Virus record (IMG/VR): IMGVR_UViG_2529292873_000014
DNA: 6,065 nucleotides
Reading direction: 5' to 3' (one strand)
Source of the DNA: a virus
Taxonomy: Duplodnaviria > Heunggongvirae > Uroviricota > Caudoviricetes
Shown here: positions 1,948 to 2,661 of the stretch, piece by piece
Numbering within the stretch: position 1 is the stretch's first letter
Layout of the letters: the number at the start of each line of letters is the position of its first letter
Notes under the pieces: generated by a model
Told to the model about the DNA's origin: nothing
Databases searched by the model: none
The model's input: only the letters and a program-made list of their open reading frames with translations
Made by a program: the position numbers and the translations under genes

Positions 1948-2661
1948 TCAATAATCAAGCCCTTGCCTGGATACATATCTGTCTGGCGGGAAGCCATAAT
2001 AGCGGTGAAATACAGAAATAAAGTAGGACCAGCTTGAATAACCGCATTTTTCTGCTACAGCCTGTCCATATCCATGCCGGGAACATAACATATTGACAGC
2101 AACACGCATCCGCTCTTCCAGCAACAAGCGACTGAACATGTGCCCTTCATTTTTCAGTTTTATCTTTAACAAACTCTCACTCATATGCAGGCGTAACGCA
2201 ATCGCACCAAGCGTCCAGCTTGCTGATATATCTGTCTGAATTATCGCCCTGACTTTGGCACTTATACTGGATAAACATCCACTTAAAAATAATAATATCC
2301 GTTCATCTGATTCAAACAGAGACAGGCAGGCCATCATAAGAAACATATCCGTGACCTCTCCGGAAAATCCCTGGCTGGTAATTAAAGCCGCAGCCAACGC
2401 AGGATTGTTGGGTTCCAGCAACAGGTAAAGCGGAATGTCAGTCAGACGAGTCCTCGTCAGCTTATGCTGACTTTCCAGATATTGACTTACGACGGATTCG
2501 CTTATATCGACAATTTTAACTTTGCCATAATGCATAAGGAAAAGCTCCCTGATGCATTTGGTGGCCAGAACGACTGAGCCTGGCTTAAGTGACAACGTAT
2601 CCTTTTCAAGAAAAATATTAATTGGGGAGCAAACCATGATAACTGAACAGACAACAACCAT
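1948..2661 (-). CDS. AraC/XylS-family transcriptional regulator, YdeO/GadX/AppY-like subfamily
   Basis: 237-aa ORF with ATG at 2661; alternative ATG at 2637 gives MVCSPINIF. C-terminal AraC-type HTH region (WTLGAIALRLHMSESLLKIKLKNEGHMFSRLLLEERMRVAVNML ... EKCGYSSWSYFISVFHRYYGFPPDRY) resembles recalled YdeO/AppY/GadX segments such as ISESLLKKKLK and QCGYxSTSYFI. DNA is AT-rich, roughly 35% GC in a sampled 60-nt stretch versus about 52% in the backbone. Confidence 0.8.
   Translation of the reverse strand: MVVVCSVIMVCSPINIFLEKDTLSLKPGSVVLATKCIRELFLMHYGKVKIVDISESVVSQYLESQHKLTRTRLTDIPLYLLLEPNNPALAAALITSQGFSGEVTDMFLMMACLSLFESDERILLFLSGCLSSISAKVRAIIQTDISASWTLGAIALRLHMSESLLKIKLKNEGHMFSRLLLEERMRVAVNMLCSRHGYGQAVAEKCGYSSWSYFISVFHRYYGFPPDRYVSRQGLDY

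Follow-up and report, generated by a model that had tools for sequence, protein, structure and literature searches.

A psr allele of the PsrA/PsrB type on an Sp4-like prophage of Escherichia coli and a model for its expression

Introduction

Among the means by which prophages reprogram the core stress and virulence circuitry of enterohaemorrhagic Escherichia coli are the Psr (prophage-encoded secretion regulator) proteins, which activate gadE, the master gene for acid resistance of the host. Under the action of PsrA and PsrB, GadE and YhiF are expressed at higher levels and type III secretion is repressed as a result. PsrB has been described as binding to the promoters of gadE and hdeA and as improving survival in acid. 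PsrA plays a part in the persistence of the bacteria in sheep, and deletion of psrA in O157:H7 gives a secretion phenotype (PMC10877973). The stretch of DNA described here, 6,065 nucleotides long and called the window below, carries a gene for an AraC-type regulator among the late genes of a prophage. Two questions arise. Does this gene belong with psrA and psrB or with the core regulators that it resembles, and does its product serve the host cell or the phage cassette in which it is found?

The open reading frame and its product

A 714-nucleotide open reading frame (stop codon included) fills positions 1948-2661 of the minus strand exactly and encodes a protein of 237 amino acids:

1948..2661, minus strand: psr, a PsrA/PsrB-family AraC/XylS regulator (open reading frame, Pfam, sequence identity, GadX domain 3MKL)

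The frame is real and intact, which confirms the earlier observation. Of the 5426 complete E. coli genomes searched, 725 carry it at a nucleotide identity of at least 90%, the median copy number being two, and it is therefore not a chance reading frame. Residues 155-230 of the product pass the Pfam gathering thresholds for both HTH_18 (36.8 bits, cutoff 33.6) and HTH_AraC (35.5 bits, cutoff 26.6), a C-terminal double helix-turn-helix that places the protein in the AraC/XylS family. The N-terminal regulatory domain comprises residues 1 to about 130, and the DNA-binding double helix-turn-helix extends from about residue 133 to residue 237.

The ATG at 2661 is the true start codon, because the N-terminus that it gives, MVVVCSVI, aligns with those of GadW (MTHVCSVI), YdeO (MSLVCSVI), AppY (MDYVCSVV) and ECs0287 (MATTCSVI), and because the NCBIfam YdeO model aligns from residue 1 of the protein. 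The 195-residue annotations of psr genes in the record of O157:H7 strain Sakai begin at Met43, which is too late and makes them too short. The exact same protein is present in RefSeq as WP_000261912.1, and RefSeq annotates the same 714-nucleotide gene in the genome of the O103:H2 strain 12009. The family, function and genomic position of psr are already known from published work. The names given to members of the protein cluster carry no Psr label.

The prophage and its syntenic loci

The first-pass annotation had put the gene in the late region of a prophage, and the gene order bears this out. Read along the minus strand, the window contains a DUF968 gene, RusA, Q, a CPBP protease gene, a small open reading frame, psr, the tRNA genes ileZ-argN-argO, a match to STnc100 and a SASA esterase gene. 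The neighbours of psr are as follows:

4997-6046, minus strand: DUF968 gene, disrupted (comparison with the intact O103 gene)
4616-4987, minus strand: RusA (prophage gene order)
4255..4635, minus strand: Q antiterminator, 126 amino acids (Pfam Phage_antitermQ, E 8.7e-52; BLASTP against ECs1203)
3285..4103, minus strand: CPBP (Rce1-like) intramembrane protease (Pfam Rce1-like, E 1.4e-19; G+C 0.34-0.40)
2698..2997, minus strand: small open reading frame upstream of psr (alignment of five loci)
1845..1920, minus strand: tRNA with a CAT anticodon, ileZ (ARAGORN, Rfam, Sakai and O103 annotation)
1761..1837, minus strand: tRNA-Arg (TCG), argN (ARAGORN, Rfam, Sakai annotation)
1671..1747, minus strand: tRNA-Arg (TCT), argO (ARAGORN, Rfam, Sakai annotation)
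1404-1594, minus strand: match to the full STnc100 model, 138 bits (Rfam; hairpin end at 1434-1415)
start at 1182 and running off the left end, minus strand: SASA esterase of the nanS-p type (prophage gene order)

The ileZ gene begins 27 nucleotides past the psr stop codon. ARAGORN reads the tRNA at 1845-1920 as Met (CAT), and RefSeq annotates an identical gene as tRNA-Ile (ileZ). The trio ileZ-argN-argO is the one that lies upstream of stx in Stx phages. The STnc100 match is situated between the terminator of the tRNAs and the esterase gene. STnc100 is a known prophage sRNA for which common ancestry with PasD has been proposed (bioRxiv 10.64898/2026.05.13.724894).

The window is 98.1% identical to Sakai prophage Sp4 over 6058 nucleotides, where genes ECs1082-ECs1088 stand in the same order. 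Matches that cover at least 80% of its length occur in 535 complete E. coli genomes. The best of these whole-window matches, at 98.4%, include O103:H2 and O45:H2 strains, and O26 and O145 strains follow at 98.2%. Carriers of psr among the matches listed are mostly O157:H7, O145, O111 and O103. In Sp4, in Sp11, in O103 strain 12009 and in phage phiSTEC1575-Stx2k the order is the same, psr being located on a lambdoid prophage between Q and the lysis genes. A few kilobases downstream of psr the syntenic loci carry pchA (Sp4), pchB (Sp11) or a PerC-family gene (O103). Linkage to such pch (PerC-family) regulators and to type III effector loci of the prophage is a trait of the Psr family, and the window stops short of the part of the prophage concerned.

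The Sakai genome has two psr copies, ECs1087 in Sp4 and ECs2191 in Sp11. By annotation, Sakai prophage Sp6, which is at potC, and prophages Sp10, Sp12 and Sp14 have no AraC gene between Q and the esterase gene. The same is true, again by annotation, of the prophage at potC in the re-sequenced EDL933 genome (NZ_CP008957.1, 1629367-1667089), and this prophage, CP-933N, we take to be OI-50. A review places psrA (z1789) in OI-50 (PMC10877973), whereas the group behind the description of the psr genes, in a paper of 2026, identifies psrA as ecs1087 in Sp4 (PMC13502914). As the potC prophage of EDL933 has no such gene, our mapping of Z numbers to prophages rests on the latter paper. The old O-island assignment of psrA may reflect the original assembly of the EDL933 prophages.

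Two genes close to psr are damaged. The DUF968 frame is shifted over residues 131-197, approximately, relative to the intact 349-residue O103 gene, with the first TGA at 5609-5611, and the displaced middle of the gene is the open reading frame at 5404-5757. This disruption could be due to prophage decay or to a sequencing error. The other damaged gene is the small open reading frame, whose relatives in O103, Sp11 and the Stx2k phage encode a 66-residue winged-helix-like protein that ends near 2798. It has weak, sub-threshold matches to the TrmB and MarR winged-helix families (E 0.002-0.04) and is annotated as a TrmB family regulator in phiSTEC1575-Stx2k. In the window, a one-nucleotide insertion (cagtTtcgg) puts other residues in place of the C-terminal CGCYRR and carries the frame on to 2698, and Sakai Sp4 has a different change, a one-nucleotide deletion. 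The small gene has thus been damaged independently in two close relatives in which psr is intact. With the small open reading frame frameshifted and the DUF968 gene disrupted, the prophage is probably cryptic, and Q-dependent expression may have ceased.

It might then be supposed that psr is itself a dead relic of a cryptic prophage in decay, with a frame that has stayed open by accident, no expression and no consequence for the host. The frameshifts or stops in two neighbouring genes favour this, as do the AT-rich composition of the region (G+C 0.40-0.45) and the described xenogeneic silencing of prophage genes in enterohaemorrhagic E. coli (PMC13502914). Such an end for psr is improbable, however, because its frame is full length and the DNA-binding domain that it encodes is the same, residue for residue, as in the functional PsrA, whose loss has the secretion phenotype cited above. 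The gene is moreover kept in the 725 genomes, often in at least two copies, and the -10 hexamer in front of it is conserved in five loci.

Relatives of the protein

Full-length comparisons separate a group of very close relatives from all others. The window protein is 97.9% identical to the copy in O103:H2 strain 12009. It is 96.2% identical to ECs2191 of Sakai Sp11 and 94.5% identical to PsrA (ECs1087), both over 237 amino acids and without gaps. Identity falls to 37.6% for ECs0287 of Sakai Sp1, 33.8% for GadW, 31.8% for GadX, 28.9% for YdeO of K-12 and 28.3% for AppY. PsrA (ECs1087 in Sp4 of O157:H7 Sakai, z1789 in EDL933) has the same length as the window protein, and its gene has the same position in the 98.1%-identical segment.

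The identities of two of these relatives have to be argued. ECs0287 is the only AraC gene of Sp1, which we take to be OI-8, and is on that ground presumably PatE (z0321, OI-8). Sp11 contains nleG2-3, nleG6-2 and nleG5-2, which we assume to be the genes linked to OI-57, the locus of PsrB (z2104). ECs2191 is probably PsrB, since, in addition, its 90.7% identity to ECs1087 fits the 90% published for PsrA and PsrB (PMC10877973).

The first-pass annotation had suggested kinship with PsrA, PsrB and PatE. The gene is syntenic with psrA of Sp4, and the protein shows about 90% or more full-length identity to both PsrA and PsrB. In neighbour-joining trees the Psr group was recovered in 100 of 100 bootstraps. 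It was joined to the PatE-like group in 90 of 100, counted as bipartitions. ECs0287 is likewise a prophage-borne, two-domain AraC regulator with the shared N-terminal motif, and belongs to the sister clade. PatE, too, activates acid-resistance genes (PMC10877973). The window protein is not of the PatE type, however, because its identity to ECs0287 is low and because ECs0287 and related AraC genes of lambda-like phages lie at the prophage's right end and not, like psr, between Q and the lysis genes. Judged by sequence, the window gene is a psr allele.

The protein had also been described as like YdeO, GadX and AppY, and this likeness is real. The best curated NCBIfam models are YdeO and then GadX, so that the best homologues do not fall outside the GadX/YdeO clade, and the best solved relative is the DNA-binding domain of GadX. 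GadW, GadX, YdeO and AppY of K-12 have the same architecture and size class as Psr, and GadW, YdeO and AppY share with it the N-terminus MxxVCSVI. These features would also be expected of an orthologue or displaced copy of one of the four core regulators that does that protein's job, but such an origin is very improbable. Identity to the four is only 28-34%, and the scores are far under the equivalog cutoffs: 105.4 bits against 348 for YdeO (NF007407), although the alignment is full-length (1-229 to 1-230 of 253), and 88.2 bits against 500 for GadX (NF007432), where only the C-terminal half is aligned. The Psr proteins form their separate, fully supported clade, and psr belongs to the late region of a prophage, away from the acid fitness island, the ydeO locus and the right end of DLP12. 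The core regulators, encoded at these other loci, presumably respond to other input signals. On sequence grounds, then, the window protein is situated in the GadX/GadW/YdeO/AppY neighbourhood of the AraC family and is an orthologue of none of the four.

Structure comparison

The nearest solved structure by sequence is the GadX DNA-binding domain (3MKL, E 1.5e-18), followed by full-length Rns (E 7e-16), CsvR and ToxT. An AlphaFold2 model of the Psr protein was built from 14 homologues and has a mean pLDDT of 72.7. Most of the C-terminal domain is modelled with values of 83-95, the N-terminal half with values of 43-75. A Foldseek search with this model returned the same proteins, namely the GadX domain, Rns, CsvR and ToxT, with full-length fold matches at E 8e-10. 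The C-terminal domain of the model superimposes onto 3MKL with a TM score of 0.90 (normalised to the GadX chain), an rmsd of 1.6 Å and 42% identity.

Rns, CsvR and ToxT are virulence regulators of the AraC family that have a fatty-acid-binding N-terminal domain. They are the only full-length solved structures matched, both by sequence and by fold. Their identity to the Psr protein in the structural alignments is 17-20%, and the global superposition is poor, with an rmsd of 14-17 Å and a TM score of about 0.4. A pocket for fatty acids, as in Rns or ToxT, was considered and dropped, because the N-terminal half of the model is too uncertain and the superposition too poor. What can be taken from the model is the two-domain AraC architecture, and no finer detail.

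A mosaic allele

A site-by-site comparison of the window protein with the two Sakai proteins gives a simple pattern. The ECs2191 type is matched at 109 of the first 110 residues, without exception over residues 3-110. From residue 111 to residue 237, a region that includes the linker and the entire DNA-binding domain, all 127 residues are identical to those of PsrA (105 of 105 in the DNA-binding domain proper, residues 133-237). The 13 substitutions that distinguish PsrA from the window protein all fall within residues 39-103, where the window protein is of the ECs2191 type, whereas ECs2191 has eight substitutions relative to the window protein in residues 118-211. The allele is a clean mosaic, a domain-level recombinant of the two O157:H7 types.

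This pattern has consequences for what the protein would do. Because residues 111-237 are identical to those of PsrA, its DNA targets should be those of PsrA, and with the same DNA-binding domain the allele probably works as PsrA does. Traits set by the N-terminal domain could, on the other hand, follow the ECs2191 type. Signal input or oligomerisation could differ from that of PsrA, as 13 of the 110 N-terminal positions are different.

A putative displaced late promoter

The promoter, transcript start and terminator assignments given below were made by consensus scans and by homology to Sp5, the Stx2 prophage of Sakai. The signals in question are:

3122..3204, minus strand: PR'-like late promoter and leader (short-word BLAST and MAFFT alignment to the region of Sakai Sp5 just past Q)
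2795..2812, minus strand: terminator-like hairpin GCCTTCAGTCCTGAAGGC followed by TTTTTT (terminator scan, sequence)
2697..2724, minus strand: sigma-70-like promoter candidate for psr (best promoter match in the region, 10 of 12)
1639..1656, minus strand: intrinsic-terminator-like hairpin and T8 after argO (terminator scan)

The Q protein of the window is 80% identical by BLASTP to that of Sp5 (ECs1203). It ends two codons past the end of the alignment and is about 20 residues shorter than the Sp5 protein. In Sp5, PR' overlaps the end of the Q gene and consists of TTTACG, a 16-nucleotide spacer and TATCAT, which would place the start of transcription at about 4346 of the Sp5 locus sequence. This start is consistent with the reported StxS, a 258-nucleotide PR' transcript with an RNase E site at +173 (PMC7547250).

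The homologous segment of the window, 3204-3122, is not next to Q. It contains the hexamers TTTACG (3204-3199) and TATGCT (3182-3177), separated by a 16-nucleotide spacer, with a predicted start near 3170. A GC-rich 5' hairpin, found at 3143-3128 by the terminator scan, and a T-run follow. The start region AAGAGTGGTTA, the hairpin and the T-run are common to this segment and to the PR' and StxS start of Sp5. About 1 kb of DNA with a G+C content of 34-40%, containing the CPBP gene, separates Q from the PR'-like segment. The position of the PR' homology, the AT-rich stretch and the shortened Q together make the CPBP gene look like an insertion that has split Q from its promoter. We infer that the Q protein would have its site of action in the PR'-like segment, some 1 kb downstream from its gene.

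Two other locations for the late promoter were tried. The spacer directly after Q (4254-4110) has several weak promoter-like sites and no terminator, and the homology to the Sp5 PR' is found at 3204-3122 instead. The STnc100 match at 1404-1594 was considered as a PR'-tR' leader, and this was dropped once the Sp5-type PR' had been found upstream of psr.

The portable psr module

Blastn homology of the window to Sp11 (95%) and to phiSTEC1575-Stx2k (91%) starts at 3132-3143 and ends at 1630. As this segment is common to loci behind different Q genes, the small open reading frame, psr and the tRNA genes seem to constitute a portable module. The Sp11 locus of ECs2191, with the module at 95% nucleotide identity, differs from the window in having another Q gene and in lacking both the CPBP gene and argN. 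Among deposited phage genomes, that of phiSTEC1575-Stx2k alone contains a close homologue of psr, and in it the module (3498-5008 of the locus) is located immediately upstream of stx2AB. In this phage psr would be co-transcribed with Shiga toxin after induction.

Within the module, the hairpin at 2795-2812 coincides with the normal end of the small open reading frame and is upstream of the psr promoter candidate. The latter consists of ATGATA, a 16-nucleotide spacer and a perfect TATAAT at 2702-2697, about 36 nucleotides before the ATG, and is a promoter by prediction. The TATAAT is conserved, along with the sequence on either side, in all five loci compared (the window, O103, Sp4, Sp11 and the Stx2k phage). 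The hairpin at 1656-1639 is the next strong terminator-like site past psr. It closes the psr-tRNA unit, and the module ends at about 1630.

The CPBP protease, which the first-pass annotation had noted as the neighbour of psr, is not part of this unit, as it is upstream of the putative PR', and the modules of Sp11 and phiSTEC1575-Stx2k lack it. Local control of the cassette, the other role that had been offered, likewise found no support. That Psr is mainly a regulator of the cargo and late genes around it (CPBP, the small open reading frame, the tRNAs, nanS-p, lysis) and not of host genes is the least probable reading of all, for even though AraC-family members often control adjacent genes and psr always travels with the small winged-helix-like frame and the tRNAs, the module occurs without the CPBP gene, the published targets of PsrA and PsrB are the host promoters gadE and hdeA (PMC10877973), and no local target site was identified.

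Proposed role and mechanism

The window gene is very probably a psr allele on a lambdoid prophage of the Sp4 type, from an attaching-and-effacing or Shiga-toxigenic lineage of E. coli, with the host-regulator role of PsrA and PsrB and the mode of expression set out here. By analogy with the work on PsrA and PsrB, its product would bind to AT-rich sequences in host promoters, among them those of gadE and hdeA. The gene would then be an instance of lysogenic conversion of host regulation and not of phage housekeeping. For PsrA and PsrB, there is published work on lysogenic conversion that affects acid resistance and type III secretion (PMC10877973; PMC13502914). For the window allele such conversion, which the first-pass annotation had suggested, is proposed by analogy. 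GadW, GadX, YdeO and AppY all converge on gadE, and AppY and PatE act on the same acid-resistance/gadE circuit (PMC10057817). The psrA and gadE transcripts shift together after manipulation of the sRNA HnrS, whose gene is carried by Sp9, Sp10 and Sp12 and not by Sp4 (PMC13502914).

In the model for expression, the module, comprised of the small open reading frame, psr, ileZ-argN-argO and the terminator, would occupy a position just downstream of the PR'-like promoter that corresponds to the stx slot of Stx phages. Most transcription of psr in the lysogen would come from the gene's own promoter candidate at 2724-2697. Once the prophage is induced, psr and the tRNAs would be reached in addition by Q-modified RNA polymerase that has started at PR' and passed the hairpins. 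We infer from this arrangement that, like stx, psr receives Q-dependent read-through from PR'.

A more far-reaching proposal, which we regard as possible but unlikely, has two parts. With psr in the slot of stx, behind a Q933-type PR' with a StxS-like leader and ahead of ileZ-argN-argO, induction or spontaneous Q activity could produce a pulse of Psr, coupling acid resistance and the shut-off of type III secretion to the lytic switch, and psr alleles could evolve by exchange of their sensor domains while the DNA targets are kept. If sensor domains are exchanged in this way, strains with multiple copies could feed several signals into gadE.

As a representative of its family, the window psr adds one carrier and one allele and no new principle. 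The expression anatomy of the module, as deduced here, is partly new. For specialists, the points of interest are the placement of psr behind a late promoter of the Stx-phage type, in a portable module that directly precedes stx2 in one phage, and the recombinant nature of the allele. The Stx-type promoter placement and the mosaic could explain the timing of psr expression.

The CPBP protease retains the motifs EExxxR (EESLFR), FxxxH (FGFYH) and HxxxN (HFGLN), and from these residues it looks catalytically intact. Its counterpart in Sakai Sp4, ECs1085, is annotated as a CAAX protease.
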